A DNA stretch of 64,000 nt from an uncultured Bacteriovoracaceae bacterium (GCA_964601045.1 CAZRLF010000004.1:92809-156808), one strand, 5' to 3'; counted from the stretch's first letter, positions 2,421 to 64,000 are shown. Notes: generated by a model not told the origin, from the sequence alone. Numbers and translations are program-made.

Positions 2421-4154
2421 ATGAGTTCAAAAACGAAAAAATCAGAAGTCGACGATAGCTTTTGCCGGGCCCTTTTTAACGGAAATCTTTTAGAAGAACG
2501 CCTCAATCCATATCCCGAATTTGATGCCAGCCAGTGGGAAGGGGTGACGGAGGTTATAAAACGTTTTAAGCAAGATCGGGTCGACTCCCGCAAAATTGAC
2601 GAAGAGGCGAGGGTTCCAGTTGAGCTTATCGAAGAAATGAAGCAAATGGGCCTTTATGGGGTAATAATCCCCGAAGAATTCGGGGGGTTCGGTCTCGGGG
2701 CGACCGGCTACTCCAAAGTCATGGAAGAAATGGTTCAATGTGATTCATCATTGACCCTCTCAATTGGAGCTCATCAGTCGATTGGAATGAAAGGTCTTCT
2801 TTTATTTGGAAACGAGGCTCAAAAGAAAAAATACCTGCCTAAGCTTGCGACCGGAGAGATGATTGCTGCCTTTGCTTTGACTGAGCCCACGAGTGGAAGT
2901 GATGCCCAAAGCATTCAGACTAAAGCTGTTCTTTCGGCTGATAAAAAAACTTGGACCATCAATGGCTCCAAACTTTGGATTACAAACGGAGGCATCGCCG
3001 ATTTTTTTACTGTCTTCGCCAAAGTAGAAGTCGATCAAGATGGAGAGAAAAAAGAAAAGGTCACCGCGTTTATTGTTGAGCGAAGCATGGGTGTAAAAAA
3101 CCTGGCCGAGGAGCACAAACTTGGAATCAAGGGCAGTTCCACCGTTCAACTCGTTCTCGAGGATGTAAAAGTTCCTGCAGAAAATCTGCTCGGTGAAGTG
3201 GGCAAGGGCTTTAAAGTCGCCATGAATATCTTAAACAGCGGTCGGCAGGGCCTTTCGGCCGGATGCGTGGGCGTTTCTAAATTTATGATTCGAGAAGCCA
3301 GCAAATACGCCGCTGAGCGAAAGCAATTTAATCAACCCATTGCTAACTTTAAAATGATCAAGGCCCATATAGCTCAGATGGAAATTACGGCTTATGTTCT
3401 TGAGAGCATGGTCTATCTCACGACCTCCTGGATCGATAAAGGAATTGGCGACTATTCGATGGAGTCTGCCATTTGTAAAGTATTCGGCTCTGAAATCGCC
3501 TGGGATAATGTGAATCGAGCTCTGCAGATCGCTGGTGGAAACGGGTATATGAAAGATTATCCGTACGAGCAGGCCTTACGAGATTCGCGTATCAATTTAA
3601 TTTTTGAAGGCACAAATGAGATTCTGCGTCTTTTTATTGCGCTTACCGGATTGCAAGCCAAAGCGGTTGCACTTCAAGGCACTCAAGCGGCGATGAAGCA
3701 TTTGTTTGATGAACCTATCAAGGGCTTCGGGGCATTTTATAATTATGCGTCGCAAAGACTTAAGCAAAATATTGCACCTGAAGAGGCAAAGAATTTTCAT
3801 CCGCTATTAGAGCAGCAAAAGAAGCACCTTGCTCGCTCGATTGCTGATCTTTCTGAAGCTGCCGAGTATATTGTCAAAAAATATCGAAAGAACGTCGTCG
3901 ATGAGCAGCATGATTTACGACGTATTGCCGATATTACCATCGATGTTTTTGCAATGACGGCCAGTCTTTCTCGTGTCACTCAAGAAATAAAAAAACTGGG
4001 GGAAGATGAGACCCTTCATCAGCGGCAGATTATCGCGGTTTTTTGCAGTCAGGCTCGAAGACGCATTCGTGAGAATCTACGTCGTCTTGAGATCAACAAA
4101 GATAAGGCGATTGACGCCATTGCTGATAGAGTTGTGAAGCGAAACGTGGGTTAA
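2421..4154 (+). CDS. acyl-CoA dehydrogenase, long form with a C-terminal extension
   Basis: It carries ACAD motifs AFALTEPTSGSDA, GSKLWITNGG and IFEGTNEILRLFIA. I moved the start to ATG 2421 (MSSKTKK) to avoid overlap with the upstream divergent gene. Confidence 0.85.
   Translation: MSSKTKKSEVDDSFCRALFNGNLLEERLNPYPEFDASQWEGVTEVIKRFKQDRVDSRKIDEEARVPVELIEEMKQMGLYGVIIPEEFGGFGLGATGYSKVMEEMVQCDSSLTLSIGAHQSIGMKGLLLFGNEAQKKKYLPKLATGEMIAAFALTEPTSGSDAQSIQTKAVLSADKKTWTINGSKLWITNGGIADFFTVFAKVEVDQDGEKKEKVTAFIVERSMGVKNLAEEHKLGIKGSSTVQLVLEDVKVPAENLLGEVGKGFKVAMNILNSGRQGLSAGCVGVSKFMIREASKYAAERKQFNQPIANFKMIKAHIAQMEITAYVLESMVYLTTSWIDKGIGDYSMESAICKVFGSEIAWDNVNRALQIAGGNGYMKDYPYEQALRDSRINLIFEGTNEILRLFIALTGLQAKAVALQGTQAAMKHLFDEPIKGFGAFYNYASQRLKQNIAPEEAKNFHPLLEQQKKHLARSIADLSEAAEYIVKKYRKNVVDEQHDLRRIADITIDVFAMTASLSRVTQEIKKLGEDETLHQRQIIAVFCSQARRRIRENLRRLEINKDKAIDAIADRVVKRNVG
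2543..2553 (+). repeat. GGTGACGGAGG motif copy (exact), inside the acyl-CoA dehydrogenase CDS
   Basis: This is an exact 11-mer read as GVTEV. The extended match is GGTGACGGAGGT. Confidence 0.9.
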
Positions 4155-7683: not shown

Positions 7684-7694
7684 GGTGACGGAGG
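7684..7694 (+). repeat. GGTGACGGAGG motif copy (exact), intergenic, part of the 16-mer TGTGGTGACGGAGGTA
   Basis: The 16-mer at 7681-7696 is identical to the one at 18911-18926. Confidence 0.9.
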
Positions 7695-7792
7695 TAGGTT
7701 AAAAAAAGCCATAAGTTTTAATGGGTTACAAAAAACATCCCCCGTGCGCAGGTGAATTCTTTGGCATGGAGATTGCATTGATTGAGGTAAGA

Positions 7793-10486
7793 GTGTGGTG
7801 CACGTTTAAAAATTATCTTAGGTCGGTTTTTCTTTTTTTGAGTGCGAATACTATCTTGTTCGCTGATCAAAACGATGAGGTTCGATTTGCGGTTGATGGG
7901 CGGGCAGCAGTCCTTAAAAACAACTCACTCTATTTGGAGTCTCAACGTGAAAAGCCTGTTCTTGAAAAAATTCAAATGATGGCCCCGCCTTTCTTTATGG
8001 CAGGGGGTAAGCTCTATCGAGTTCAAGGATTTAAAGAAGAGCTCAGGCTTTATCCAATTCAAATTAAGGCGCATAAAAGGCTTCTTTCTGACGGCGAAGA
8101 CGGAACCGAGACTAAAATTTTATCGCTTTCACCAGCCGGGCTAGTGATTTACGAATTTAAAGGAGAAACCTATCTCGCCCGACTTCAACTCGATGAGAGA
8201 TCTAGGTTTACAATTATTAACCCTGAACGCGCGGGCGAAAGAATTTCCTCTATTTATGGTCTTGCTGGTGAACATATTAAAATAAGAAAACCCGATTCAG
8301 AGCATTTTATTTACTATCGTGTAACGAACAAACCTGAAGTCGATATTTCGTATGAGATTCAATACAAAGCGGCAAAAGAAAATGTTCCTTATTTTTGGGA
8401 GAGACCCGTTCTAAAAGTTCTGCCTCCGCCTCAGCTTGAATTTAATTTTGATACGGGGCCTCTAAACGACGATGAACTTAAAAAACTAGAGATGGAACTT
8501 TCGACCGATCTCACGCTTTTTATGAAAAAATATTTTGAAAGCAGACCCCTGAAGTTTCGATACTTTCCGAGTAGTTTTTTACAAAACAGTGAGGGCTTTA
8601 TTGCGCGATGGATTAACAACCATTCTACTCAAATGGACATTCTCGATAGTCTAGAGCCTAAACTTCGCAATACAATTTCTTTGCGACCATCCAATCGACT
8701 CTATAGAGGTCAGTTAGCCCGACATCCCCTGAATGTAGCAATTGCGATCGTGCGTGATGAAGAATTGGTTCCTAAGCCAGATTCCAAAAAAATAGTGCAT
8801 CAAGAAGTGGGCAAATGGATTCAGTCCCAGGCAGGAGACGAAAATTTTTGGAATTTATGGCCCGAGGACATTCGAGAGCAAGTGCGAACAGAATTCTTAA
8901 AAAATTCAGATTCTTCAACGCCAGCTTCAAAGGTCGCACTCGTTCAAAACTCTCAAGAGCTGACCAAAGAAGAAAAACGTCACCTTCAAATTAAGCGCAG
9001 GGTTGATCCTCTACGCGTTCTTTCTGATTATCTTTTATCTCTCCCAGTAGATCAACGGCAGCTGCCGAAACAAAGAGATGCGGCAATTGCGGGAATTTTG
9101 GGCAGATGGATTGTCGATAATGGCGGACAACTTAAAGTGCTTTCGGAACTCGATCCTGAACTAAGAAAAACTGTATCGATCGACGCCGCCCATAACGGGT
9201 TTCTTCGCCAGCTAAAATTGGCTCCTTATAATTTTTCTCTTTCATTGATTCGAAAAGATAAGGCGGTACCTACGCTCGATCAGTCCTCGGCTATTTACCA
9301 AGCTGTGGCAACTTGGCTTCAAGAAGCATCTAAGCAATCTGATTTTTTACAAAATTGGCCAGAGGATGTTCGGCCAATTATTAAAAACCATTTCAAGTTA
9401 ACTGAGCATGTTTCGGGTGATTTAATTCCGAAAGGTTCTGAAACAGACCCAGTTGATAAACAAGGTTTTGATTTCTATATTCGATTGAGAACGGATCTGG
9501 TTGGTTTAGTGAAAGAATATCTCGAAGCTCTTCCCCTTGAAAATCGCATTATGCCAAATATAAACGATGGTCCAGAGGGCTACTGGATACAAAAAAAATC
9601 TTCACAGATAAAGATGATTGAGAAGCTGCCCGCTGATTTAGCAAGCACCGTCGCCGTTCGACCTTCAAATAAGTTTTATAAAGTGTATGCACAGAAAATT
9701 CCCAGAAATATTATTTTGTATTTAGTTCGAGTAAGAAAGCAGTTTCCGACAGAGCAGAGCTATCGGCTTCTTTGGGAATGGCTACAAGTCGAATCTAAAA
9801 AGGACGGCTTTTTAGATTCTTGGCCTGAAGACGTTATTCCACAATTTGCGGTTCATTTTAATCTTCGAAAGAAATCTCAGGTTGATAATCGCAGAATTCA
9901 GTCGATTCCTTCTTTGAGCGAAATAGAGAAGTTAAAAATGAAAGATATTTTTACTCGTTGGGAATATACGAGCGATCTAGAGTCTTTTAATAATCTTCTA
10001 AAAAAGCGCCAGGCTGAAGCCGAAGCACCAGTCATTGACAATAAAAATGAAATTTCATCTTGGCGAGATTTTGACGATTTAAGACAGCGATACGAAGTTG
10101 CAACAAAAGATGAGAACCATGAGGAGCATGAGGAAATTGATTTTGATTTGCTTGCGCAGAACTGGGATGCAGCGCTTAAGTTTTGGCAGACGAATCGAAA
10201 GACTGAACTGAGATCTCAACTCGCGGTTGCTTATATAAAAAGAATCGGCGTTATTCCGACAGAGAAGATGTCGCACGATTTACTTGCGGTTGAGATTGCT
10301 GCCTGGATGCGCCACGAAACCAAGGGCGGCTTTCTGCAGACTCATTTTGACGAACTCAAAGAGATTCGAGAAGTTAGAGAATTTATCTATTCAAAAATAA
10401 AGGCACAAAGCAAACGGCGCTGCACGGCTGAACTTTTAGAAATCTCAAAACAGAAGAAAAAGAAGAAAAGGAAAAATGCAGCTTAA
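7793..10486 (+). CDS. large secreted hypothetical protein with three ~155-aa internal repeats and a poly-Lys tail
   Basis: The long ORF shows coding-like periodicity. A GTG at 7793 is preceded by GAGGT and yields the signal peptide KNYLRSVFLFLSANTILFA. An alternative ATG lies at 7766. Confidence 0.6.
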   Translation: MWCTFKNYLRSVFLFLSANTILFADQNDEVRFAVDGRAAVLKNNSLYLESQREKPVLEKIQMMAPPFFMAGGKLYRVQGFKEELRLYPIQIKAHKRLLSDGEDGTETKILSLSPAGLVIYEFKGETYLARLQLDERSRFTIINPERAGERISSIYGLAGEHIKIRKPDSEHFIYYRVTNKPEVDISYEIQYKAAKENVPYFWERPVLKVLPPPQLEFNFDTGPLNDDELKKLEMELSTDLTLFMKKYFESRPLKFRYFPSSFLQNSEGFIARWINNHSTQMDILDSLEPKLRNTISLRPSNRLYRGQLARHPLNVAIAIVRDEELVPKPDSKKIVHQEVGKWIQSQAGDENFWNLWPEDIREQVRTEFLKNSDSSTPASKVALVQNSQELTKEEKRHLQIKRRVDPLRVLSDYLLSLPVDQRQLPKQRDAAIAGILGRWIVDNGGQLKVLSELDPELRKTVSIDAAHNGFLRQLKLAPYNFSLSLIRKDKAVPTLDQSSAIYQAVATWLQEASKQSDFLQNWPEDVRPIIKNHFKLTEHVSGDLIPKGSETDPVDKQGFDFYIRLRTDLVGLVKEYLEALPLENRIMPNINDGPEGYWIQKKSSQIKMIEKLPADLASTVAVRPSNKFYKVYAQKIPRNIILYLVRVRKQFPTEQSYRLLWEWLQVESKKDGFLDSWPEDVIPQFAVHFNLRKKSQVDNRRIQSIPSLSEIEKLKMKDIFTRWEYTSDLESFNNLLKKRQAEAEAPVIDNKNEISSWRDFDDLRQRYEVATKDENHEEHEEIDFDLLAQNWDAALKFWQTNRKTELRSQLAVAYIKRIGVIPTEKMSHDLLAVEIAAWMRHETKGGFLQTHFDELKEIREVREFIYSKIKAQSKRRCTAELLEISKQKKKKKRKNAA

Positions 10487-18832: not shown

Positions 18833-18913
18833 GCTTTCACCACATACCTAAAGCGTGCAAAAGATATGCCATAGTTTGTTCCTCTAAGTTACTTAATTTA
18901 CTGATATTTTTGT

Positions 18914-18924
18914 GGTGACGGAGG
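18914..18924 (+). repeat. GGTGACGGAGG motif copy (exact), intergenic, part of the 16-mer TGTGGTGACGGAGGTA
   Basis: The 16-mer at 18911-18926 is identical to the one at 7681-7696. Confidence 0.9.
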
Positions 18925-32300: not shown

Positions 32301-33069
32301 TCAAGTGCACTCTGAAGCCGATGTGATGATTGATCAAATCGCCGAAGGTTGCATTGTGAATGCCGGACGAGACTCAGCAATTAAAGGCGGAATTTTAGGG
32401 CGAGATCGCGCGATTATTACTGTGGGGCGAAACCTTGAAACCCTCTATATATCCGGTGGAGCTACGGTCAATGTTCAGGGCAATTTGATCGTGGGAACCG
32501 AGATTCTCAACAGCAAGATTAGAGTGGCTGGTAAATTAGAGTGCTGGGAGGGTGCCGGAACTGTCAGTGGTGGAGAAATTCATGTTTTTGAAGGAATGAA
32601 AGTTAAGACATTGGGATCTTCAGGAGCTGAAAGCCAGACAACGGTCTATTTAGGGCATCATTATTTTAGGGATCGACAGGCTCAAGAAGAGATTAAGCGA
32701 TCGGGTTTGGATGTCAAAATCATCGAGGCGGAGAAGAAATTGGCAGATTTACAGAAGGAACTATTAGCCTTTTCGGAGGCTCCTACGGACGGTGTTGGAC
32801 GTGATTTTCAAGAGAAATACATGAAGGCCCTTGATCAAAAGAAGCAGTTTCAAGACGATGTTCAGCGCCTAAAAGCCGAACAGGATATGATTCTATCGTC
32901 TGTACCCATTAATAAAGACTGTGTTCTGACGGTGACGGAGATGATTTACCCCGGTGTGACCATTATATATAGAGATGTGGTCTGGACCCTTAAAGAGCCG
33001 CAAAGGGGTGTCGAAATCGTCTGGAATCCTGCGACTTCTAATATTATTTCGAGACGGCTTTCGCATTAA
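29353..33069 (+). CDS. giant DUF342 (FapA-like) protein with four N-terminal-type modules
   Basis: The C-terminus is a DUF342 beta-helix plus coiled coil (GGILGRDRAIITVGRNLE...VTEMIYPGVTIIYRD). Segments of the type VKVSADKMKASLEL are repeated four times. Confidence 0.65.
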   Translation: MKVLMIEAADEEAAQLKLASDLGIGIGDLKCVRTQNRKFSFEILNCPARIEVEIARDGMKAILKRVLLPIGNTTIPLDVNFIVDQLKAKGVKAGIKRDVISQEVFKILKTPGYDESKILSIVVAEGQMPVTATTGRPKWAIDLKLFEKGVPLYAKKGEVLARAPHAVPGKDGFKVTGEIIKAPVDEQFRLNVGAGILTQSGESEILYVTQTFGRLFYDQGIRLRLETKIIDQDGGMAAAIETGKTSFSGATIKADDLLDMAKSQRIVFGFLNPAEIEDQLKSAKKWPAQIVVARGRVPTDGTYGEIKYKYRESSSTQVIDTLKVKAAIVFPGEVIAEIAPPKEPISGQTVFGEALRGKPVDGLPIYPGKNVNREKVDQTTVLKAASYGRVKVDKDRISVENVLKVSADKMKASLELFPQKPLSVNDLSNMLREADILMPLNRDDIEKRLGEVFLKAERVEDFLVVEGIPPQAGTDAKVIYRFSPDLFKEKGLFQKKTDAALFAIPGDLIMTKILPLEAREGLNIYREKLPVPKSGVPKDIEVLVGDGVDELQVGREGDPKDQLRLEYRSNQIGILSWKDRKLDVLPVIEVDKNEKFAALRLAGRSDFGTQVTEDVLKKIAEAEGIRAELNWAEIRPALAIKRNPGDPLPRVVIVKAKDPIQGVDAKVDYFVDYNGEPIQKQMGPKADLRAPVKFLDCVRPRDVLAIKTPVVQGEDGYTIFGRKIIADRGRDEVWPIGEGIERTADGNQIICNTKAPGYVILDRGKICVRSMVKVASDKMSASVSLYPSQNPRFPLKEDKVLAMLHDIGVREGIKTQALAEAIQKVNSEKEPIIDFVVAEGTKAQRGQDGSFVTAVDVGSTVGEIRADGSVDFKSRNIFVNVKKGQLLLIKRPPTMGEDGKNVMGARVPAAPGADARLDPRDGVEVVGNGLEYRATVDGVLEIKNKSVRVIEGLMIGSDISFKTGHINGGHTNVFVKGAVLPDFQVHSEADVMIDQIAEGCIVNAGRDSAIKGGILGRDRAIITVGRNLETLYISGGATVNVQGNLIVGTEILNSKIRVAGKLECWEGAGTVSGGEIHVFEGMKVKTLGSSGAESQTTVYLGHHYFRDRQAQEEIKRSGLDVKIIEAEKKLADLQKELLAFSEAPTDGVGRDFQEKYMKALDQKKQFQDDVQRLKAEQDMILSSVPINKDCVLTVTEMIYPGVTIIYRDVVWTLKEPQRGVEIVWNPATSNIISRRLSH
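32931..32941 (+). repeat. motif near-copy GGTGACGGAGA (10/11) in the DUF342 CDS
   Basis: It has one mismatch at the last base. On its own it could be chance. Confidence 0.4.
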
Positions 33070-52481: not shown

Positions 52482-53596
52482 TAATAACCTTTATTTAAAA
52501 ATTCTTTGATCGAATCGTAAATGGATTCTTTATTGGGAATTCGAGACGAGATCACAAGTTCTTTAAATGCATTACTGCCTTGAAAGCGTTCTTTAAGATC
52601 TCGTAAAAACTGGCCACTGCCGTAAAGACTTTCAACCTGGCCGTAACAAAACATATTCACCTGTGGAAGAATTTGCTGCTCCATAATTTGAAAACATTTC
52701 TGGGTATCGTCAGCACTCCAATTATCTCCATCTGAAAAATGAAATGGGTAAATATTCCATTCTGAAGAAGGATAGTTGCGTTTGATGATTTCATTTAAAA
52801 GCACATAGGCCGACGAAATAATTGTTCCGCCTGACTCTCTGGTTGAAAAAAATGTTTCTCGATCAACTTCTCGCGCCGAAGCATCGTGAACAATATAGCG
52901 TGTTTCTAGGCCTTTATACTGAGATCTCAACCAAGTATCGATCCAGAAGGCCTCAGTTCTTACGATTTCCTTTTGCTCGTCACCCATAGAACCCGAAACA
53001 TCCATAATCAAAATGATGGCCGCACTATTATTTTCGTGCTGCTTGGTCTTCCAGGTCCTAAATTTTTGATCACGCGCTTGAGGAATAATGACTGGATTAT
53101 CGGGATTATAATCATCCATTGAGATCTGACGTTTAAGTGCCTGTTTATAGGTTCTCTTTAAATGTAAAAGCGATTTAGGACCAATCGAGTGAATACCTGT
53201 GTATTTATCTTTTACAGATGAAATGTTCTTGTTTCCTCGAGGTTTGATGCGAGGAAGTCCGAGTTCTTCACCCATGATGGCTGCAAGTTCGTCGAGAGTG
53301 ATATCGACTTCGCGTAAATGCATTCCCTCAGCATCGCCAGCTCCCGATGAGCCTTCACCTTCACCGGGGCCGAGCGATTGACCCGGTTGACCATCGCCGG
53401 AGCCCACCCCTTGCCCTTTATTATCACCAAACTCGAAATGGGGCAGATCGATCGAAGGCATTGGAATACTTACTAAGTCTTTGCCTTTGCGGCCGACCAT
53501 CTCACCTTTTGAAATATACTTTCTTAAATGCTGCTTGATACGGCCGCGAATAATTTGGCGAAATCGTGCGTTGTCTGAATTAATCTTTAAAAACAC
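52481..53596 (-). CDS. yeaH: YeaH/YhbH family protein (DUF444, vWA-like)
   Basis: It has a Gly-rich acidic loop and [12 protein letters not shown]. The start is a GTG preceded by GAGAGGA. It lies between prkA and spoVR. Confidence 0.85.
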
Positions 53597-53649
53597 GTTT
53601 GTCCTCTCGAGAGAAGATGAGCTTTAGGTTTTAGCAAGAGAGGGATTCA

Positions 53650-55749
53650 CTATCCCTTGCTCTTGATATCACCTCGAGCAAAAATGGAGGCCACAAAGTT
53701 CAGCACATCTGTTGCACTCTCATCGTTATAACCAAAGTTTTTGATTAAACGCGTTTTGACGACATCAATTTTCTCCTGGGTTTCTTTGTCCACAACATTA
53801 GAGACGAGATTCGTCAATTTGATTGAATCTTTTTGATCCTCAAAAAGTTTGAGCTCTAAAGCTTTATGCAGACGCTCATTGGTTTTGTAATAAAAGGTTT
53901 TTCCTTCTACCGCCAGAGCGCCGATATAGTTCATAATCTCTCTTCTGAAATCATCTTTTCGAGATTCAGGAATTTCAATTTTATCTTCGATAGAGCGCAT
54001 AAGCTTCTCATCGGGTTCTTCATACTGACCTGTAAATTTATTTTTGACTTTTTCGCGCTGAGTATAGGATTTGACCGAATCAATATAATTGGCACAAAGC
54101 TTTTGAATCGAATCTTCATCGGCACAAACCGCTCTTTGAACTTCGTTCTTAACTATATCTTCGTACTCTTGTCGTACAACGGTCAGAAGATCTCGATATT
54201 TCTTTCGAGTTTCTTCATTAGCGATGAGAGAGTGGTGCTTAAGGCCACCCTCAAGCTCGTGAAGAATCATAAAGGGATTAATCGAGGTTGATTCATTCGA
54301 AACTAATGCATTTGAAATCTTATCTTGAACGTATCGAGGTGAAATGCCCTCCATACCTTCGCGAGGCGATTCTTTTCGAAGCTCTTTAATATTGTCTTCG
54401 GTAAATCCTGCCAGAGATTTGCCGTCGTAAAGTTTAAGTTTTTGAAGCAAAGTGAGATTCGCTTTCTTAGGCTCATCAAGTCGAGTGAGCACGGCCCACA
54501 TAGCTGCCATCTCAAGAGTGTGGGGAGCGACGTGCTTTCCGTGAACGCGTTTGACGTTGTAGTCTCGCTTATAGATTTTGGTCTCCTCGGTCCATTTGGT
54601 CACATAGGGAATATCGACTTTCACGGTTCGATCGCGAAGAGCTTCCATGAACTCGTTGTTTTGAAGTTTTCGATATTCAGGTTCGTTCGTATGACCGATG
54701 ATCACCTCATCGATATCGGTGAGAGGAAATTTCTTTGGTTTAATTTTGTGCTCTTGGCTGGCACCTAAGAGGTCGTAAAGGAATGCAACATCAAGTTTGA
54801 GAACCTCTATGAATTCAATCAAACCTCTATTGGCTACTTGAAACTCACCATCGAAATTAAAAGCGCGAGGATCGGATTCAGATCCAAAGATCGCAATTTT
54901 TCGGTAGTTGATATCGCCGGTGAGCTCGGTCGAATCTTGATTCTTTTCATCCTTAGGTTGAAAAGTCGCAATACCTTGGCGCTTCTTTTCAGAAAGTTCG
55001 ATGCGTCTAATTTTTACGCAATCAAGAACTTTGCGATAGTCGCCTTTATAGTAATCGAGCAAAACATTATAAATAAATCGGCAGCAAGGATTAAGCTCGC
55101 CTTCAATTACGATTTGATCTTCAGGACTTCGACCATGGTTAATTGATTGCAAAACTTCTTCGCGCACTTCGGGGGGCAGAAGTTTGAGCGGCTCTTCGTT
55201 CATGGGTGAGGGCAGCTCATCAATTCCTTCTCCAAGCAGAGGTTTGCCTTCAAAGGTGACGGGGTCGGGCAAAATCCAGCTGAAGCTGTAGAGCTTTCCT
55301 TCAGGTTTGCGAGAATATTTCTCGAGCCCTTTTTTTAGGGCTCTTACGATCGTTGATTTAGAACTACCGACTGGCCCGTGAAGAAGTAAAACGCGGTGTT
55401 CAGTTCCATAACCTTTAGCGGCAGCTTTGAGAGCGGCCATAAATTTCATGATGGGTACATCAAGACCAAAGATAGAATCTCTTCCCTGGTCATCCGGATC
55501 ATCAAAAAAATTATAATGAATAATATTTTTCTTCGCGTCCACGAAGTCGCGAGTGCCGTAGCTCATCACCATATCGTAGAGGCGCTGAAAGGCGTTACGT
55601 GCGATATTGGGATCTTCTTCTACAAATTTAAGGTAATCCCAAAACGTGCCTGACCAGCCTAAATTCTGGTACTGATCTACGTATTTAGATTGAGAAAGTA
55701 TGCTTTCAATGCTCGATTTGAGTTTTGAGTCGCCTCTTGTCATTGCCAT
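53650..55749 (-). CDS. prkA: PrkA family serine protein kinase (AAA-type N-domain)
   Basis: It carries [13 protein letters not shown] and is collinear with PrkA/YeaG. The start is probably MAMTRGD (55749); the ORF is open up to 55779. Confidence 0.9.
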
Positions 55750-55831
55750 TCGCCCTTCATGTTTTGATCGTTCTCTCAAGTGTTTCCTTCCCGGACCGGG
55801 AGGAACCTATCAACCGACTTTTCCTCTCTCC

Positions 55832-57131: not shown

Positions 57132-58547
57132 TTAAAAATTATAGTGAAATCCCACTGCGTACGTGGTTGAAGTCGAATTAGATTTAACATCATTCGTAAT
57201 CATTCCGGCACGATTTCCAGCTCCAGAATATGATCGAGAGAAGTCTTCAATTCTGATAGCTGCAAAAATTTCTGAATTTGGCATTTGCAGTTTTTTCATC
57301 GTCCAGCCCACACGGCCGCCATAAGAGAGCAGAAGAGATCCTATTTCAGGTTCTCCAGTTCGAATACTGGTGGTGGGGTCAGCGCTATTTAAAACAGGAC
57401 CTTCGAAGAAATAATTAAATAAAATTATTCCAAGTTCAGGTGTGATCTTAAAGTCATAGGGGACATAAACAGCTGGAAGAAGGTTCAGTTTGGCAAATAT
57501 TTGATAGAGATTCATAAGCACGGGCTGGCCGAGGCGTGAGGGATTCGTTGGACTAATATCTCTCAATTGATTGGTAAGAAATATATTTGTTCCGAACCCG
57601 ACTTGAGCTTCGGGCTCTACACGAATGCCGTATTTAAGAAAAAAAGTTTTTCGCATAAAGCCATAACCTTGGATTTCATGTGCTTGAGCTTGAATATTTG
57701 TTTTTTCAATTTCATCGTTTGAGGGGTCAACAGATTCAGAAAAATAGGTGAATTGATAAGAGAGTTTTCCGCCATAAGTGTATTCAGGAAGTCTCATGCC
57801 GAGTTCATCGCTAATTCCGATTGCCAAGCCCGTAAAATCATAACTCAAGAAGGGGCTATCGTAGTATGATCCGTCAGTTTTTTGAGTGGAGTATTTATCT
57901 TCCCATTGTTGTAAGCCCATTTGTGCATCGAGTTCTTGATAAAAGCCCAGTCTTTCGCGAGCTATGGCAACAGGTTTTTGTTGGATGATTTCAACGGGAG
58001 CTTCACCAGATTTCAATGTAAAACTTCGTTTGTCGCTTTTTGGAATAACGACTTTTTCGGCGAATTTTTGGTCGGGGAATGATTCAACTTTGGTTTCGTA
58101 AGTTTTCTTTTGCTCACTATCTGGCGAATAAGGCTGGTCGAGTGGACCCTTAGAATTTAAAGCGAAGCTGCCGCGACGGAGAGCGCTTAAGGGGATCCAT
58201 CCCGAAACAGGAAAATCTCCCTCTAATTTATATCGAATTTTGGCAAAGGCTTGCTGAAGCTCAAGAATCTCAACAAAATCTCCCTTTTTAAGCTGAACGA
58301 TAAGGGGAGATTCAAGATTAGCCTCTCGGGTCACTTTAGCGGTGGTCGCCACAATAGTCGCCGTTTCCGGTTGCTTAAGAACCTCTGATTTCACTGACTC
58401 TGGCGGTACCACGGGTGACGGAGGCGGAGTTGAAAGCGTCGACGACGGTATGGCGAGAGAATTTGTCTCTTGAGCCATTAGTGAATTAAAAGTTGTAGTC
58501 GAGACGACCCAAAAGAGTATGGGAGAGAATATCTGTATCGAGCGCAT
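57132..58547 (-). CDS. secreted protein: Pro-rich linker, SH3-like domain, C-terminal beta-barrel
   Basis: The signal peptide is MRSIQIFSPILFWVVSTTTFNSLMA if translation starts at 58547. There is an SH3b-like segment, KKGDFVEILELQQAFAKIRY...GWIPLSAL. The protein ends in YAVGFHYNF, with the terminal Phe of an OMP signature. Confidence 0.6.
   Translation of the reverse strand: MRSIQIFSPILFWVVSTTTFNSLMAQETNSLAIPSSTLSTPPPSPVVPPESVKSEVLKQPETATIVATTAKVTREANLESPLIVQLKKGDFVEILELQQAFAKIRYKLEGDFPVSGWIPLSALRRGSFALNSKGPLDQPYSPDSEQKKTYETKVESFPDQKFAEKVVIPKSDKRSFTLKSGEAPVEIIQQKPVAIARERLGFYQELDAQMGLQQWEDKYSTQKTDGSYYDSPFLSYDFTGLAIGISDELGMRLPEYTYGGKLSYQFTYFSESVDPSNDEIEKTNIQAQAHEIQGYGFMRKTFFLKYGIRVEPEAQVGFGTNIFLTNQLRDISPTNPSRLGQPVLMNLYQIFAKLNLLPAVYVPYDFKITPELGIILFNYFFEGPVLNSADPTTSIRTGEPEIGSLLLSYGGRVGWTMKKLQMPNSEIFAAIRIEDFSRSYSGAGNRAGMITNDVKSNSTSTTYAVGFHYNF
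58414..58424 (+). repeat. GGTGACGGAGG motif copy (exact), antisense to the SH3/barrel gene
   Basis: This is an exact 11-mer. The coding strand reads CCT CCG TCA CC (PPSP). Confidence 0.9.
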
Positions 58548-60192
58548 AATCATGCTCATGAGAGAAATCATAACGGAATTGCCCAATGAGATTCGAGAGA
58601 AACCTGTAAGAGGTTCCAGCTCCGGCATAAAAATCGGTCGATTTGTCTCGATAAGACGGGGCTGTTTGGTTCAAAACGGCGGAGTCGATGTCTCTTTTAC
58701 TTGAAACGTACTGAAAATACGCGTCAAAAGCCCATTGAGTGCCCCAATCGTAAGCGACGGTTTGATAAAAGTCGTACCCCTGGGATTTGAATCGCTGTGT
58801 ATAGGTTGCCGTACTTTCCGTTTCGAGTTGACCACCTAGGAGAAAGAGACGAAGGCCGAGCGAAGTGCGATGGGCATCTTTTCGGTTTAGAACGCTAAGG
58901 TTTTTGGAAGGAGTGAAGTCAGCTGCTGGGGTGACCGGTGTATTATCGGCTGTTTTGTTTGAATCTATAGTTCGTCGCTCGTATCGAAAGCGTACAAAAG
59001 GCTGAGCCTCGAGAATGGGGCGATAGGAAAGTCCAACATCAAAACGATAGCGATGCGATTTGTCGAGACTGTCGCTAACGCGGAGGGACTGAGTACTGCC
59101 ATCATCTGTCACCCAACGAACGGCGGTCTGATCGAGAAAACGACTAATTCTAAATTGCGAAAACCCAAAGGAGGCAAACCACTGCGATTGCGGCCTCCAA
59201 AAGGTTTGAAGCGAGAAATGTGAGCTGCTGAATCCGTTATCTTCTTTGGCTGGAGGCCAGGGGAGTTCAAGAGTGGAGAGAGCAAGAAAGCTCACCTGAC
59301 GAACAGGGGTGAAGTGAACTTTATTGTAGAGATAGAATCGACTCATATCGCCTTTATACATTTCAGCAACGAGTGATCCGTCGGCATAGAGTTTGGTATC
59401 ACCTTGAGATGCAAAATTGGGAATGAATCGATAAGTGGGGCCTACAGTGAGGTAGTCTTTTGAAGGGTATTTTGAAATGGGATCGGGAGCGAGTCCTAAA
59501 AAGAAACCCGCAGCCTTAGCGTCGGGAGACGATGAGGGCCCAAAAAACTTTTCGCCATAGACGCCGTCGACGGTAGCGGGGCCTGTCAGGGAGCGACGGC
59601 CAATACTATATAAATAGTCTGCGCCCTTATATTCAAAGTAGGTATCGGAGAACCTTGGTCGATATTTTTGGGAGCCATAGAGGGCCCGATTTTCCATCAA
59701 ATTGGCTGTGAAGTTACCGTTTATTCTAAAATTCAACGGACCACTGACCCCGCGAATATCAGCTCCGATATTGGAGAGAAGAGTGTCGCCACCAAGTTCA
59801 CCTTTAGTGATCGTTTCGCTGCCGGTGGGGTCGGAGGAGTTAATTGTTCTGCCGAGCTCAAGCTCACTGCCATTGCCTTCGCCGGTTCCAATTTTTCGGA
59901 ATTCACAACGCCGAGGTGCCGCGCACTCAGTGGGAATATCGGGGCCGACAGCAACTCCAAGCAAATTATCGCTAGCATCGTAAACAAGTGCGACAGTGGT
60001 CGAATCAAAATCATCAAGTTGATAGAGCGACCAAGTATTCAATCTCCCTTGAAATAACCAAGACCCCGAAGCCGCTGCCGATTCCGTAGCTTCTAGCCCA
60101 CTACCGTTGGTGACAGAGGCCGCAATTGCGGTGACGGAGGCAAGTCGGTTAAATAATTTGAATGCCGATAATTTTAAGGAGTGCTGTTTCAT
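58486..60192 (-). CDS. large outer-membrane beta-barrel protein (about 568 aa)
   Basis: It has a signal peptide, MKQHSLKLSAFKLFNRLASVTAIAA, alternating beta-strand patterns, and a C-terminal LLGRLDYNF. Its start overlaps the cytochrome stop (ATGA). Confidence 0.65.
   Translation of the reverse strand: MKQHSLKLSAFKLFNRLASVTAIAASVTNGSGLEATESAAASGSWLFQGRLNTWSLYQLDDFDSTTVALVYDASDNLLGVAVGPDIPTECAAPRRCEFRKIGTGEGNGSELELGRTINSSDPTGSETITKGELGGDTLLSNIGADIRGVSGPLNFRINGNFTANLMENRALYGSQKYRPRFSDTYFEYKGADYLYSIGRRSLTGPATVDGVYGEKFFGPSSSPDAKAAGFFLGLAPDPISKYPSKDYLTVGPTYRFIPNFASQGDTKLYADGSLVAEMYKGDMSRFYLYNKVHFTPVRQVSFLALSTLELPWPPAKEDNGFSSSHFSLQTFWRPQSQWFASFGFSQFRISRFLDQTAVRWVTDDGSTQSLRVSDSLDKSHRYRFDVGLSYRPILEAQPFVRFRYERRTIDSNKTADNTPVTPAADFTPSKNLSVLNRKDAHRTSLGLRLFLLGGQLETESTATYTQRFKSQGYDFYQTVAYDWGTQWAFDAYFQYVSSKRDIDSAVLNQTAPSYRDKSTDFYAGAGTSYRFLSNLIGQFRYDFSHEHDYALDTDILSHTLLGRLDYNF
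60109..60119 (+). repeat. motif near-copy GGTGACAGAGG (10/11), 21 nt from the copy at 60130
   Basis: It forms a tandem with the exact copy at 60130. Both encode ASVT in the barrel signal peptide. Confidence 0.6.
60130..60140 (+). repeat. GGTGACGGAGG motif copy (exact), antisense to the barrel gene
   Basis: This is an exact 11-mer. The coding strand reads (G)CC TCC GTC ACC (ASVT). Confidence 0.9.
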
Positions 60193-62447
60193 AGACGTCT
60201 CCTTAACTTCCAGGAAATTTGAGAATGGCAATCTGAGCAATCTTTAGAGGATGCAAGATCATGAGGAGATTTGCCGTTTGTGGTCTTTAGATAAGAGTCA
60301 GCATGACAGAAGAAGCAGTCGTTTGGCAGGCCTTCATAGATTTGGTTTTTATGGCAGTCGGAGCAAGCAGCATACCGATGAGCGCCTGTAAGCCTAAAGC
60401 CTGTAAGGTTATGTTTGAATTTAGGTGGCAGCCATGCTGTCTGGGAGTGGCAGTCACCGCAAGTAAGGCCAAGTTTACCGAGGTGTGGATCGTTCTTTTG
60501 ATGGCAAGTGCCGCAAAGAATGCCCATGCCTTGGTTAGTAGCATCCGATCGATGGCATTCGTTACATCCCATTTTGTCGTGGTAGCCTTCGAGTTTAAAG
60601 AATCCTAGATCATGGACCTTAGCCCCCCGTTCAACCGAGAAAGAACTTGTACTATGGCAGGAGTCGCAAGCTTTTCCATATTGTCCAGCGTGAACGTCAG
60701 TGTGGCAGTTAAGACAGTCCGTTGGAGCTGAGTCGAACTGAGATTTTGGTACTTCATATTTTTTAAGCAAATGCTGAGGATGACATTTTTGGCAGGAAAG
60801 TTCGGCGTGACGACCAGTTAATGCCCATCGGCCGATAAGCGAGTGTTCAAATTTTGAGACTGGTTTAAATCCATCTGTGCGATGACAGTCGCCGCATGTA
60901 TCGGGCATGGATTTACCGTGAGGATCCTCATGGCAGCCAGCACAATTGGGATTTGTATTGTTGGCGGGCATATTTTTGAAGCCTTCATTCACATGGCAGG
61001 AAAGACAGGCGACGCTACGATGTTTTCCGGTGAGGTCGAACTGGGTGTTTTTATTGTGGTCAAACTGGATCCAAGAAAATTCCGTCGTTACGTGGCAGAA
61101 TGAGCATGGTTTATCGATCTGTCTTTTATCGTGGGGATTTCGATGGCAATCGCTGCACTCGCCTGTGGAGAGATTTTCAAAAGTTCCACTTAAGTGACAT
61201 TTGTTACAGTCGAGAACTTGATGCTTACCCGAAAGTGGGAATTTTGTTTTGGAGTGCCTTTCGAGGTCGAATGTTGAATTAATGAATTTTTGAGTGAAGC
61301 TGTGACAGCTTTCACATGATTGCTTAGCGAATTGCTCTCCGTGCGGAAATCCGTGGCAGTCAGAGCATTCATCAAATTTATCAGAGGGAACTTTAAATTT
61401 AGCTTTTGGGTCTGTATGGCAAGAGTCGCAAGCCACGGCTTCATGATATCCTTTGAGCGGGAACTTTGTTTTTGAGTGATCAAAACCCTTATCTTTGGAT
61501 GAATGCTTTTTGCCATCCCTAGTGGGAATAATATCTTTCCATTTTCGGTAGACGTTATGGCAAGTCGTACAGTCGTTTCCAAAACTTCCCTTGTGCGGAT
61601 CGGCATGGCAGTCGGTACATTTATCAAAGTTCAGTGGGGCAAATGTGGTAAGTCTTTTCTTTTGGGAATCAAGTTTATGGCATTCTTTGCAACCGACGGG
61701 AACGTGAAGTCCTTCAAGTTTAAATTCTGTTTTGTCATGATTGAAGCTCTGCTTCTTGGCCATTTTTTTCCAGTTTTCAATTGTGGAACTGTGGCACTGA
61801 GTACAATTGAGCCAGTCTTTTTTTGAGAATTTATGTTCGTAATCATTTTTATGGCAGGGATAACAATCGGTTGGGGCTTCCAGATACGTCCGAGAGGATG
61901 TGGTTTCTGATGTTTTTGAGTTTTTACGAAAGGTTGAGTGACAAGATTTACAGTCGGGGCTGGTATGTTTTCCGATGAGTGCGTAGCCGGTTTCGTCGTG
62001 GTTAAAGGTTTTAAGCCAATCTGAGGGAGCAAAAATCGAGTGATCTTTTCCTTTATGGTCTGCGTGGCAGTTTTTGCACTCGGGTTTGTCGCGATGGTAG
62101 CCACGTTGCTTGTCTATGCGAGAAGAAATATCTGTGTGGCAGTCGAGACATTTTTTGTGAACAACGTCTTTACCAGTGCGGCTTTGGTGACACTCAATAC
62201 AACCTTGAACGGTATCAATTTCTTCATGTGCCTTTGTCAGAGGGCCAGGGGATCGGGTTAGGAGTTCTTTCAAAAACTCCTGAGCCTGGAGAGAGGGGGG
62301 GACTATTTGCAGTTTACCTCCGTCACCGAGAAGAACAAAAAATACAGAAAAGGAGAGACAGAAACGGACAAACACAGTCATTCGAGAATTTCGGGACATT
62401 TGTCTAATGCTTTCGCCTTTTGTTGTGATTTTGTACTCCGTCACCAT
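60189..62447 (-). CDS. multihaem c-type cytochrome with 27 CxxCH motifs (nine trihaem c7/c3-like modules)
   Basis: I counted 27 CxxCH by eye. The repeated unit is F.H..T.F.L.G.H....CxxCH ... CxxCH.DPH.G.....CxxCH. The signal peptide is ...MTVFVRFCLSFSVFFVLL...SLQA. Alternative starts are at 62399 and 62381. Confidence 0.85.
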   Translation of the reverse strand: MVTEYKITTKGESIRQMSRNSRMTVFVRFCLSFSVFFVLLGDGGKLQIVPPSLQAQEFLKELLTRSPGPLTKAHEEIDTVQGCIECHQSRTGKDVVHKKCLDCHTDISSRIDKQRGYHRDKPECKNCHADHKGKDHSIFAPSDWLKTFNHDETGYALIGKHTSPDCKSCHSTFRKNSKTSETTSSRTYLEAPTDCYPCHKNDYEHKFSKKDWLNCTQCHSSTIENWKKMAKKQSFNHDKTEFKLEGLHVPVGCKECHKLDSQKKRLTTFAPLNFDKCTDCHADPHKGSFGNDCTTCHNVYRKWKDIIPTRDGKKHSSKDKGFDHSKTKFPLKGYHEAVACDSCHTDPKAKFKVPSDKFDECSDCHGFPHGEQFAKQSCESCHSFTQKFINSTFDLERHSKTKFPLSGKHQVLDCNKCHLSGTFENLSTGECSDCHRNPHDKRQIDKPCSFCHVTTEFSWIQFDHNKNTQFDLTGKHRSVACLSCHVNEGFKNMPANNTNPNCAGCHEDPHGKSMPDTCGDCHRTDGFKPVSKFEHSLIGRWALTGRHAELSCQKCHPQHLLKKYEVPKSQFDSAPTDCLNCHTDVHAGQYGKACDSCHSTSSFSVERGAKVHDLGFFKLEGYHDKMGCNECHRSDATNQGMGILCGTCHQKNDPHLGKLGLTCGDCHSQTAWLPPKFKHNLTGFRLTGAHRYAACSDCHKNQIYEGLPNDCFFCHADSYLKTTNGKSPHDLASSKDCSDCHSQISWKLRRRL
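62317..62327 (-). repeat. GGTGACGGAGG motif copy (exact), sense orientation in the cytochrome gene
   Basis: The plus strand reads CCTCCGTCACC. The mRNA reads GGT GAC GGA GG (GDGG). Confidence 0.9.
62435..62445 (-). repeat. motif near-copy GGTGACGGAGT (10/11), fused to the ATG of the cytochrome ORF
   Basis: The mRNA reads ATG GTG ACG GAG TAC. Confidence 0.6.
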
Positions 62448-62451
62448 TTAA

Positions 62452-63189
62452 CTATTGGTCCATCGAATTGTTAGTGTTAGGAGGCTGACGAGGCGTGGTT
62501 TCTAAATTTATTCCGTTTGCTTCGGCCAAACCTTCAAAATTTGCTCGTAGATTGGGGGCAAGCCTTAAGACTGGTTCACAAAGGGAGTCGCGAAAAGATT
62601 CAAAGCTCTGATCTCGCACACTTTTAAGGATTTTTGACAGAGTTTCCCATTCGGATCGTGTGATTGTATAAGAGAGATACGGAGTTATGAGTTCCTCGCG
62701 AGTCCATCGTACTCGGGGAGTGGGTTCTGTTGGTGACGGAGGCAGAGAATCCGTATTTGCTGCGTTTGCTCGATTTCGAAAAATAGCAGCAAAGAATGTT
62801 GCTCGAACATAGTCGGCTTTTGAACTTCCAAAAACGGTCCCAATTGGCAGTTTCTGAGCTTTTGAACGAAGTCTGGTTCTTCCAAAAATCAAAGAGTGGG
62901 CAATTCTGCAAAAAATTTGCGAGTTTGGTTTGGACCCTTTGGTGACGGAGGAATCTTCGTACCAAAATCGAAGATCGACTCCATTTCTGCCTTCCAAATT
63001 GCTTTGAAAAACTCCTTCAAAACGGTGACGGAGGAATGGCTTTACGGGAGATAAGCCCCAGATTTTTTCGTATTCTGGAAGAGATGCGACGGTTGAGAAT
63101 TTTTGCGAGCTTGTAAGAGAGGGCAATGGACCATCAAGTTGACTGATTAGAAAAAGCGGAACAAACAGAAAAAATGAAAAAGTAGGCAC
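62452..63189 (-). CDS. hypothetical secreted protein, first gene of the cytochrome operon
   Basis: It has a GTG start, and the signal-like N-terminus is MPTFSFFLFVPLFLISQ. I recognise no family. Its stop lies 4 nt before the cytochrome ORF. Confidence 0.5.
   Translation of the reverse strand: MPTFSFFLFVPLFLISQLDGPLPSLTSSQKFSTVASLPEYEKIWGLSPVKPFLRHRFEGVFQSNLEGRNGVDLRFWYEDSSVTKGSKPNSQIFCRIAHSLIFGRTRLRSKAQKLPIGTVFGSSKADYVRATFFAAIFRNRANAANTDSLPPSPTEPTPRVRWTREELITPYLSYTITRSEWETLSKILKSVRDQSFESFRDSLCEPVLRLAPNLRANFEGLAEANGINLETTPRQPPNTNNSMDQ
62732..62742 (+). repeat. GGTGACGGAGG motif copy (exact), antisense to operon gene 1
   Basis: The coding strand frame is CCT CCG TCA CC (PPSP). Confidence 0.9.
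62941..62951 (+). repeat. GGTGACGGAGG motif copy (exact), antisense to operon gene 1
   Basis: The coding strand frame is TCC TCC GTC ACC (SSVT). Confidence 0.9.
63024..63034 (+). repeat. GGTGACGGAGG motif copy (exact), antisense to operon gene 1
   Basis: The coding strand frame is CTC CGT CAC C (LRH). Confidence 0.9.
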
Positions 63190-63241
63190 GCCTACTATCT
63201 TGCATTAAAATTCATGCAAATTCATTAAAAGAGATCTTAGA

Positions 63242-63279
63242 TTCTTAGCCGTCGAGTTTTTTGTAACGACGACTAAGAA
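63242..63279. other. 13-bp imperfect inverted repeat (hairpin) between the small gene at 63318 and the cytochrome operon
   Basis: ttcttagccgtcg (63242-63254) pairs with cgacgactaagaa (63267-63279), with one mismatch and a 12-nt loop. There is no clean U-tract. Confidence 0.4.
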
Positions 63280-63317
63280 TCGCATTCGGACTGAAAATGG
63301 GGATGAATCATCGGTTT

Positions 63318-63533
63318 TTATTCATTGTTATTTCTTCTCAGCCTAAATTCTAACTGGTTGGAATCTAACGTTAACGTTAGCTGGCTTATATTTGCGTCAA
63401 TACGCTCCAGGATTTTGAGCTGGCGCCTAATTCCGGCCTCCAGGGCCCAAATACTTTCAAGTAATCTTAACTCCGCATTTTCAAGTTCTTGCTCAAGATA
63501 CATAATCGATAATTCTTGATTAGAGGTGTTCAT
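63318..63533 (-). CDS. small coiled-coil hypothetical protein (71 aa from ATG 63533)
   Basis: The ORF reads MNTSNQELSIMYLEQELENAELRLLESI... and overlaps the comM stop by 14 nt. I recognise no family. Confidence 0.35.
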   Translation of the reverse strand: MNTSNQELSIMYLEQELENAELRLLESIWALEAGIRRQLKILERIDANISQLTLTLDSNQLEFRLRRNNNE

Positions 63534-64000
63534 GGGGTCTCTCCATTCGCATAATAAACTCATTAAAGTTGTTTTGATCGCGTTGTGTTGGCGCCGAGCA
63601 TTCATAAAATTTGCACCAGCTAATAAAGCTTTCGAGTTGATTTCTTTGACGCCGTGGATTTTGTTTTGAGTTTAGTCGAATGTTTTCCAAGTTTATGGCT
63701 TTTAAATTTCGCGCATCAATAATTCTCTTCTTAAGAGTTTTAATTTCAAATTCTCTCGACTTAGAGAAATCATGAAAATCCCAAAATACTTTGAAGTGAA
63801 AGCGATCTTGAAGCGGCCCTGAGATCCGAGCTTTGTAAGCTTGGTATTCAATCGTTCGACAAGTACAGACTGTGGTTGAGCAATGAAATCCGCATTTGCA
63901 TGGATTCATCGCGGCGAGTAGCTGAATGTCTGCGGACATCTGTGCTGTTGCTCCTGATCGAGCAATGCTAACGCGTTTCGTTTCTAAGGGTTCTCGAAGA
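63520..64000 (-). CDS. comM: Mg-chelatase-like ATPase ComM/YifB, C-terminal part (the gene runs off the right edge)
   Basis: The frame is open to the window edge. LREPLETKRVSIARSGATAQMSADIQLLAAMNPCKCGF...YKARISGPLQDRF matches the ComM/YifB core. Confidence 0.75.
   Translation of the reverse strand, partial: LREPLETKRVSIARSGATAQMSADIQLLAAMNPCKCGFHCSTTVCTCRTIEYQAYKARISGPLQDRFHFKVFWDFHDFSKSREFEIKTLKKRIIDARNLKAINLENIRLNSKQNPRRQRNQLESFISWCKFYECSAPTQRDQNNFNEFIMRMERPHEHL

Follow-up and report, generated by a model that had tools for sequence, protein, structure and literature searches.

Why should one exact 11-nucleotide (nt) word be packed into the genes of a single cytochrome operon? The question is raised by a 64,000-nt stretch of chromosomal DNA from an uncultured bacterium of Bdellovibrionota/Bacteriovoracaceae type (GCA_964601045.1, CAZRLF010000004.1:92809-156808; hereafter the window), which encodes SMC, an acyl-CoA dehydrogenase, a SpoU methylase, L13, PrkA and comM. 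An earlier note on this sequence described the 11-mer GGTGACGGAGG, clustered in a four-gene operon with a multihaem cytochrome, and read it as a local regulatory element of that operon. This reading was not borne out: the motif follows a gene for a tyrosine transposase of the REP-associated kind (RAYT; REP, repetitive extragenic palindrome) and not the operon. The explanation that we favour, and consider fairly probable, is that the motif is the lineage form of a short GACGGAG-core repeat belonging to a clade of RAYTs, with which the operon is packed through nearness to the RAYT gene.

The motif and the RAYT gene

All nine copies of GGTGACGGAGG previously listed for the window (eight on the plus strand, one on the minus strand; Table 1) are exact, and none of 100 dinucleotide-preserving shuffles contains the 11-mer, so that the copy number is indeed beyond chance. 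The near copies given earlier (32931, 60109 and 62435) were found again as 10/11 matches, together with two further ones at 26409 and 43855; this makes 14 sites with at most one mismatch in the window. The count of six exact and two near copies inside 58414-63034 also holds. By k-mer counting, the conserved unit is the 10-mer GGTGACGGAG, which has 11 exact copies (nine on the plus and two on the minus strand) versus 0.043 expected under a Markov-1 model; the enrichment of the 10-11-nt unit is over 250-fold. Among the 10- and 11-mers of the window, GGTGACGGAG and GGTGACGGAGG rank first in over-representation, and one-mismatch variants of the 10-mer are in mild excess (7 seen versus about 1.8 expected). 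Conservation around the copies stops at t-GGTGACGGAG-G-a/t, beyond which the flanks are random. Text searches of the literature with motif strings returned primers only and no paper tying such a motif to Bdellovibrio-like bacteria, in agreement with the earlier note, to whose author no described element with this sequence was known. All counts in this study rest on the window plus sampled loci of relatives (L numbers), not whole genomes.

The same 10-mer is the top k-mer in each of four other loci. Two of these are syntenic with the window, L126 (13 copies per 22 kb; cytochrome 67% identical to that of the window) and L127 (10 copies per 22 kb; cytochrome 62% identical); the others are L133 (4 copies) and L101, a 4.6-kb ketoacyl-synthase contig of an Oligoflexales metagenome-assembled genome (MAG), which has five copies at a locus unrelated to the operon. 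L101 was the sole useful result of a scan of genome contigs for GGTGACGGAGG-N0-30-GGTGACGGAGG, in which the matches listed were mostly tandem coding repeats of high-GC genomes. Copies in L126 and L127 lie in the TPR/dnaK spacer, downstream of dnaK, and in hypothetical, NTP-transferase and DUF444 genes; together with those of the ketoacyl-synthase contig, they speak against the proposed link with the cytochrome operon. Two further syntenic loci carry one-base variants: tGGGGACGGAGy in L132 (28 copies per 20.6 kb) and GGGGACGGAG in L188 (17 copies per 20.7 kb, with an 11th G in 14 of 17).

In L126 and L127, a gene for an IS200-like Y1 protein is found immediately upstream of comM, at a distance of two genes from the cytochrome operon. 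Its product fits the NCBIfam family "REP-associated tyrosine transposase" better than IS200 (REP_Tyr_transpos, E = 2.8e-14, which is below the curated cutoff), also matches Pfam Y1_Tnp, and carries the HUH motif NHPHI and the tyrosine region HY-D-NPVRAG. RAYTs are HUH/Y1 enzymes that act on single-stranded DNA. The automatic call of the RAYT gene in L127 was too short; the open reading frame (ORF) is 6808-7476. In all syntenic relatives with an intact RAYT, the gene is directly upstream of comM.

The RAYT homologue of the window genome, P0122, is an intact protein of 231 amino acids (aa) with NHPHI and HYIDMNPVRA, 58% identical to the RAYT of L126. A phmmer search of P0122 against the PDB gave no match and a profile search only a weak one, to 4ER8 (E = 0.21). 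For an AlphaFold (AF2) model of P0122 (pLDDT 83.6), the best Foldseek match was again 4ER8, the E. coli TnpA-REP (E = 1.8e-6, TMt 0.68); the IS608, IS200 and ISDra2 transposases came next. We infer that the RAYT gene of the window would lie about 1 kb past the window end, and the start of the operon about 2 kb from it.

RAYT genes themselves have sigma-54-type promoters. Runs of the palindrome TCCGGA/TTCCGGAA stand between the motif copy and the RAYT promoter in L126 (~6580-6640), L132 (~9890-9950) and L133 (~2680-2740); these look like sites of an enhancer-binding protein, which suggests that RAYT expression is regulated.

Motif and intact RAYT occur together in six lineages (the window, L126, L127, L132, L133 and L188). 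The seven motif-less lineages (L128/L129, L130/L131/L001, L002, L005, L003, L004 and L006) have no other over-represented oligomer at these loci either. L128 and L130 retain, at the syntenic position, a RAYT remnant that lacks the HUH and Tyr segment, and no RAYT match was found at that position in L001-L006. These RAYT-less relatives keep the orthologous operon without any motif, which argues against an operon-specific role. As a forward test, L188 was picked through its RAYT homologue P0127 and its cytochrome homologue P0009 and then proved motif-rich. In a neighbour-joining tree of the cytochromes, the RAYT-positive lineages group together and the remnant-bearing L128 adjoins them.

The form of the motif varies with the RAYT lineage (GGTG, GGGG, AAGACGGAGT, AAGACGGAGG, ATGACGAAGG and others), and these dialects track the sub-clades: GGTG in the window, L126 and L127, and GGGG in L132 and L188. 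Together, these correlations suggest a motif that is spread genome-wide in a small Bdellovibrionota group and present only with an intact syntenic RAYT. REPIN populations, for comparison, are reported to shrink and decay after RAYT loss (bioRxiv 10.1101/2021.07.10.451892).

Copies also stand at fixed places around the RAYT gene and thin out with distance from it. In 10 loci the RAYT ATG is preceded by a copy at 124-151 nt, and in two others by one at 175-219 nt. UBA10199 and Myxococcota loci have inverted copies that follow the 3' end of the tblastn RAYT match by about 270-360 nt; these are seen where comM does not overlap the RAYT gene. An upstream copy with an inverted downstream copy is the layout of a "REPtron". 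When 18 RAYT loci were pooled, motif density was 2.03 per kb at 0-1 kb from the RAYT gene, 0.97 at 1-2 kb, ~0.64 at 2-4 kb, ~0.4-0.5 at 4-7 kb and 0.18 at 9-10 kb, a drop of about ten-fold across 10 kb. Of the 11 10-mer copies in the window, 7 are found no further than about 6.6 kb from where the RAYT gene is inferred to lie, and the other four, over the remaining 56 kb, are still about 100 times the chance expectation.

The association extends beyond this group. Roughly 240 homologues of the RAYT protein were found. A scan of GTDB representative genomes with RAYT alignments gave some 70 loci, belonging to UBA10199-type "Deltaproteobacteria", Myxococcota and Pseudobdellovibrionaceae MAGs and to a bin labelled Nitrospirales, and additional, more distant RAYT-like loci that are mostly from Firmicutes. 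Many of the close homologues are ringed by an over-represented word of their own, built on a GACGGAG (or GACGAAGG) core; examples are AAGACGGAGTAA, AAGACGGAGGAA, CAGACGGAGGA, ATGACGGAGtTC, CACAAGACGGAGG, AGACGGACT and CATGACGAAGG. On the flanks of the distant homologues from Firmicutes are longer REP palindromes of the classical kind, the head of which (TGGGGACAGG...) resembles the motif.

Copy number of the RAYT gene differs among these bacteria. UBA10199-type MAGs (JACKPK01, JAHFST01, CAXXGI01 and JBDRBB01; contigs L140-142, L190, L209-213, L199/202/217 and L204/210/221) have the RAYT clade at three to five or more copies per genome, and the Bdellovibrionota group has a single, syntenic RAYT next to comM; the two may represent an insertion sequence-like and a domesticated state. 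One Oscillospiraceae MAG has a distant RAYT-like gene with GTGACATGGGG/GGGGACGTTTCG units in a dense tandem array about 2 kb upstream of it (L172, 7936-8200).

Origin of the copies and comparison with known repeats

Placement was assessed on 111 copies pooled from seven loci. Intergenic sequence makes up 15.5% of these loci and holds 42% of the copies; the other 64 (58%) lie within ORFs, 26 in sense and 38 in antisense orientation, without preference. ORF copies lean to the 5' third (48% within 300 nt of the ORF start versus 28% for background), a moderate figure that is partly an artefact of using the longest ORFs. Gaps of at most 120 nt between neighbours are frequent (41 seen versus 11.8 expected), and 36 of these 41 close pairs (88%) are direct. 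A hint of helical phasing of the direct pairs on 12 spacings was gone with 39 (Rayleigh p ~0.36), and folding did not support a hairpin beside the copies (minimum free energy of -13.5 kcal/mol for motif windows versus -11.8 for background). Because the copies are spread, show no strand preference and have a skew at the level of base composition, the constraint acts on DNA across the genome and not on the operon mRNA.

Within the operon, the reading frames noted before (LRH, SSVT and PPSP in the ORF 62452..63189, GDGG in the cytochrome ORF) match the ORF map and translations. Copies in all frames and on both strands, and a codon spelling of the LRH site that is fixed in motif-bearing lineages, rule out a repeated peptide, as had been argued, and place the constraint on nucleic acid. 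At the LRH site, the window, L126, L127 and L132 encode an invariant Arg-His as CTC CGT CAC C, where motif-less orthologues have CTCAGGCAT or TTTCGACAT, with CTC AGG CAT in L128 and TTT CGA CAT in L130. SSVT (TCC TCC GTC ACC) stands where motif-less orthologues have YAIN or FSAT, with no indel. At the GDG site of the cytochrome, the GGTG clade has GGT GAC GGA G and L132 has GGG GAC GGA G (GGGGACGGAG), so that the dialect has switched in place by a synonymous change. At its LRH site L132 retains the T form, since with the G form the invariant His would be lost. No indels stand at motif sites when the four operon genes are aligned as proteins and as codons, and several intergenic copies are kept at orthologous places despite diverged flanks. 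The lack of indels, the in-place dialect switches and the orthologous retention indicate that copies arise and persist through substitution, under a force that follows the consensus of the lineage itself.

How could a RAYT be involved? We propose that the protein would read a linear 10-12-nt sequence, probably as single-stranded DNA, and that a RAYT-dependent process, strongest near its gene, would create exact copies, preserve them, or both. Such copies would settle where they are tolerated: in spacers, in signal peptides and linkers, and in ORFs under weak constraint. The operon would be packed with them because the RAYT gene is about 2 kb away and because the operon contains tolerant sequence, namely a poorly conserved hypothetical ORF, signal-peptide ends and Pro/Ser linkers.

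A bolder extension, which we put forward tentatively as possible rather than probable, is that the RAYT clade of Bdellovibrionota, UBA10199 and Myxococcota has swapped hairpin REPs for a linear 10-12-nt word, to exact copies of which the genome is progressively rewritten. Copies would then favour the vicinity of the RAYT gene, enter ORFs and alter codons and amino acids, and the dialect would shift in place when the specificity of the enzyme changes. If true, this would be a protein-linked, substitution-based molecular drive, which has not been described for any transposase family.

Several points weigh against a RAYT-based explanation. The link is correlative, the Bdellovibrionota cases are one clade with few independent events, and every motif-rich locus except L101 was sampled near a RAYT gene. 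The RAYT of the window genome lies outside the window, and we place P0122 on the window's contig because the contigs recorded for it and for the window's cytochrome have one and the same length (171,598 bp). A clear word is missing in about one-third of the RAYT-clade loci, and the real reader could be another factor that varies along with RAYT. There is no hairpin in the unit, whereas the TnpA-REP in structure 4ER8 is bound to a REP hairpin. We know of no RAYT or IS200 reaction by which point substitutions within ORFs would build up a short motif; this missing route from an HUH enzyme to point-substitution copies is both the main weakness of the explanation and the seat of its novelty.

Few repeats in bacterial genomes are as abundant, or as little understood, as RAYT/REP elements. 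To our knowledge, all described cases are extragenic hairpins that are thought to spread by copy-and-paste; the word described here keeps orthologous sites across deep divergence. If the link reported here is causal, one protein and one short single-stranded word would make a tractable system for RAYT function, and protein sequences would be shown to be open to shaping by selection or drive on words of this kind. Surveys that rely on 16-mers or palindromes would then overlook a whole class of RAYT-associated repeats. Published RAYT surveys rely on flanking 16-mers (PMC5581495), so a word of 10-12 nt would escape them. For annotation, local clusters of such words should not be taken for operon-specific regulators.

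Among known systems, REP/REPIN-RAYT pairs (E. coli TnpA-REP with REPs and bacterial interspersed mosaic elements; Pseudomonas REPINs) are alike in having a vertically inherited, domesticated HUH/Y1 transposase at a fixed chromosomal place, a gene flanked by the most abundant short sequence, over-represented hundreds-fold, and a repeat that co-varies with the RAYT lineage and is gone where the RAYT has decayed. However, REPs are imperfect palindromes of 20-40 nt with a GTAG-type head, while the motif has 10-12 nt and no palindrome, hairpin or GTAG head; REPINs are extragenic inverted doublets, while motif pairs are direct and 58% of copies lie in ORFs; and the motif differs from both in arising by substitution rather than insertion and in its steep decay from the RAYT gene. 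In genomic logic this is a REP/REPIN-RAYT pair, but three defining REP features fail and it is not a member.

DNA uptake sequences (DUS) of Neisseria, with their dialects, and uptake signal sequences (USS) of Pasteurellaceae share with the motif its length, sharp consensus, occurrence in any frame, dialects, reshaped codons and peptides, and intergenic enrichment; unlike them, the motif is tied to and concentrated at a RAYT gene and forms direct pairs instead of inverted terminator pairs. HIP1 of cyanobacteria (GCGATCGC), a palindromic 8-mer linked to methyltransferases, is likewise frame-independent, highly iterated and kept at orthologous sites, but the motif is asymmetric and RAYT-linked. 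CGTC-tagged REPs are hairpins with 8-9-bp stems that form head-to-head dimers and were reported without a dedicated transposase; REPs inside genes, and CGTC repeats in the predatory bacterium Micavibrio, have also been reported (Di Nocera et al. 2013, PMC3733652). Read on the complementary strand, the core (CTCCGTC) includes CGTC, a likeness that is a lead only. The motif has no stem and flanks a RAYT gene.

Competing explanations

A DNA-uptake signal of DUS/USS type, in which a competence receptor prefers motif-bearing DNA and biased uptake with recombination raises the number of copies, would account for many features: a non-palindromic unit of 10-12 nt, enriched hundreds-fold on both strands and in any frame, substitution-born copies in weakly constrained protein segments, intergenic enrichment, dialects among lineages, some orthologously conserved sites, and even the adjacent comM. 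It predicts neither dependence on RAYT, nor fixed copies flanking the RAYT gene, nor a ten-fold decay in density. Close pairs are 88% direct, where inverted terminator pairs are typical of DUS/USS, one-mismatch variants are barely enriched, and comM is widespread and found in motif-less relatives too. We therefore regard an uptake signal as improbable.

Another sequence-specific DNA-binding protein, such as a sigma-54 enhancer-binding or nucleoid protein for which RAYT is merely one target gene, is to our mind just as doubtful. Its attraction is that all strong sigma-54-like promoters (TGGCAY-N5-TTGCA) in five loci (Table 1) have a copy at most 200 nt upstream. In the window, the copy at 18914..18924 lies about 45 nt upstream of the minus-strand promoter, and in L126, L127, L132 and L188 a copy stands 22 nt upstream of the promoter downstream of dnaK, with a dialect switch; the sigma-54-type promoters of the RAYT genes and the common same-orientation clusters would also fit. 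Most copies, however, lie far from such promoters and inside ORFs, direct pairs show no helical phasing (Rayleigh p ~0.36), and an asymmetric site at which exact matches dominate is unlike typical, degenerate operator sets. Loss of the motif exactly at RAYT decay would be left unexplained.

A riboregulator of the operon, in which CCUCCGUCACC in the upstream ORF pairs with GGUGACGGAG at the cytochrome start to control translation or stability, is somewhat less likely still. The earlier note had raised such long-range duplexes, and folding of a 781-nt transcript does predict nested helices (63024/62317, p = 0.998; 62941/62435, p = 0.89), albeit in a calculation that ignores translating ribosomes. 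The window, L126 and L127 each have at least two antisense copies in the hypothetical gene and, at the 5' end of the cytochrome gene, at least two in sense orientation, of which the second occupies non-orthologous positions. The inverted arrangement is absent in L188, which has only antisense copies in that region, and elsewhere it is inherited from two ancestral sites, same-orientation clustering being general to the motif. Motif-less relatives have the same operon, and the motif is abundant elsewhere on both strands. With helices that are not conserved in L188 and no match to an Rfam family, an operon-specific RNA switch is unlikely. Operon effects of the copies, whether RNA duplexes or a Shine-Dalgarno-like GGAGG, would be secondary; the copies may have a side effect on cytochrome translation.

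A Chi-like or replication-oriented sequence read by RecBCD/AddAB or FtsK, suggested by the G-rich motif and by 9 of 11 window copies on the strand of positive GC skew, has very little chance of being right, since the strand split in eight loci is as base composition predicts (order-0 and order-1) and neither Chi nor KOPS resembles a 10-11-nt unit that is enriched >250-fold, forms tight direct pairs and depends on RAYT. The split is 82% seen versus 70% expected in the window and 35-40% seen versus 36-49% expected in four syntenic relatives; base composition thus accounts for the apparent replication-strand bias.

The cytochrome operon and its surroundings

The RAYT-based explanation leaves the cytochrome operon (Table 1) as the host of the motif cluster and not its cause. 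The multihaem cytochrome, P0001, is encoded by the ORF 60189..62447, and the near copy at 62435-62445 overlaps the G of its ATG at 62447. The longest ORFs of the two outer-membrane-type genes, 57132..58628 and 58486..60240 (both on the minus strand), overlap by 143 nt; the 498-aa gene probably starts near residue 19, and its orthologues begin MI(S/F)LMK. Both proteins end in ...YNF, typical of outer-membrane beta-barrels, and with the MtrC-like cytochrome the two genes look like a porin-cytochrome module conserved across the family.

Table 1. Positions of the operon, comM, motif copies and sigma-54-type promoters, in the window unless a relative is named.
Feature	Position	Strand	Context
Four-gene operon	57132..63189	-	245-aa hypothetical protein, 752-aa multihaem cytochrome, 584-aa and 498-aa probable outer-membrane proteins
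comM/Mg-chelatase-like gene, 3' part	63520..64000	-	Window ends inside gene
Motif copy	63024..63034	+	Antisense in hypothetical gene, reads LRH; orthologous site in L126, L127 and L132
Motif copy	62941..62951	+	Antisense in hypothetical gene, reads SSVT; orthologous in L126 and L127
Motif copy	62732..62742	+	Antisense in hypothetical gene, reads PPSP; variable linker
10-mer copy, 11th base T	62436..62445	-	Sense; overlaps ATG of cytochrome ORF, reads MVTE
Motif copy	62317..62327	-	Sense; end of cytochrome signal peptide, reads GDGG; orthologous in L126 and L127
Motif copy	60130..60140	+	Antisense; N-terminal region of 584-aa probable outer-membrane barrel gene
10/11 copy	60109-60119		Adjoins copy 60130..60140
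Motif copy	58414..58424	+	Antisense; N-terminal Pro/Ser linker (PPSP) of 498-aa gene
10-mer copy	32931..32940	+	3' end of FapA-like ORF, upstream of rplM
Motif copy	18914..18924	+	Intergenic; GGAGG 5 nt before ATG (18930) of SpoU methylase gene
Motif copy	7684..7694	+	Intergenic; 78 nt upstream of sigma-54-like promoter TGGCATGGAGATTGCA (7762-7777)
Motif copy	2543..2553	+	N-terminal extension of acyl-CoA dehydrogenase ORF, just before Pfam domain (from residue 67)
Sigma-54-type promoter	7762-7777	+
Sigma-54-type promoter	18856-18871	-
Sigma-54-type promoters, L126	5015, 6672
Sigma-54-type promoters, L127	5300, 6776
Sigma-54-type promoters, L132	8346, 9969
Sigma-54-type promoters, L188	8160, 9969

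The spacer upstream of the operon (63228-63371, minus strand) gave a sub-threshold Rfam match to BTnc231, a Bacteroides small RNA (24.8 bits versus a gathering threshold of 80.4; E = 0.09), which is probably due to chance. The promoter at 7762 lies inside the longest ORF 7721..10486, the gene of which probably starts later than the ORF. A PrkA/DUF444/SpoVR trio (yeaG-yeaH-ycgB-like; 50973-55779, minus strand) adjoins the operon in all relatives. At 29353-33069 on the plus strand, the window encodes a protein of 1238 aa, unusually large for its family, in which a FapA beta-solenoid domain comes after five FapA_N repeats.

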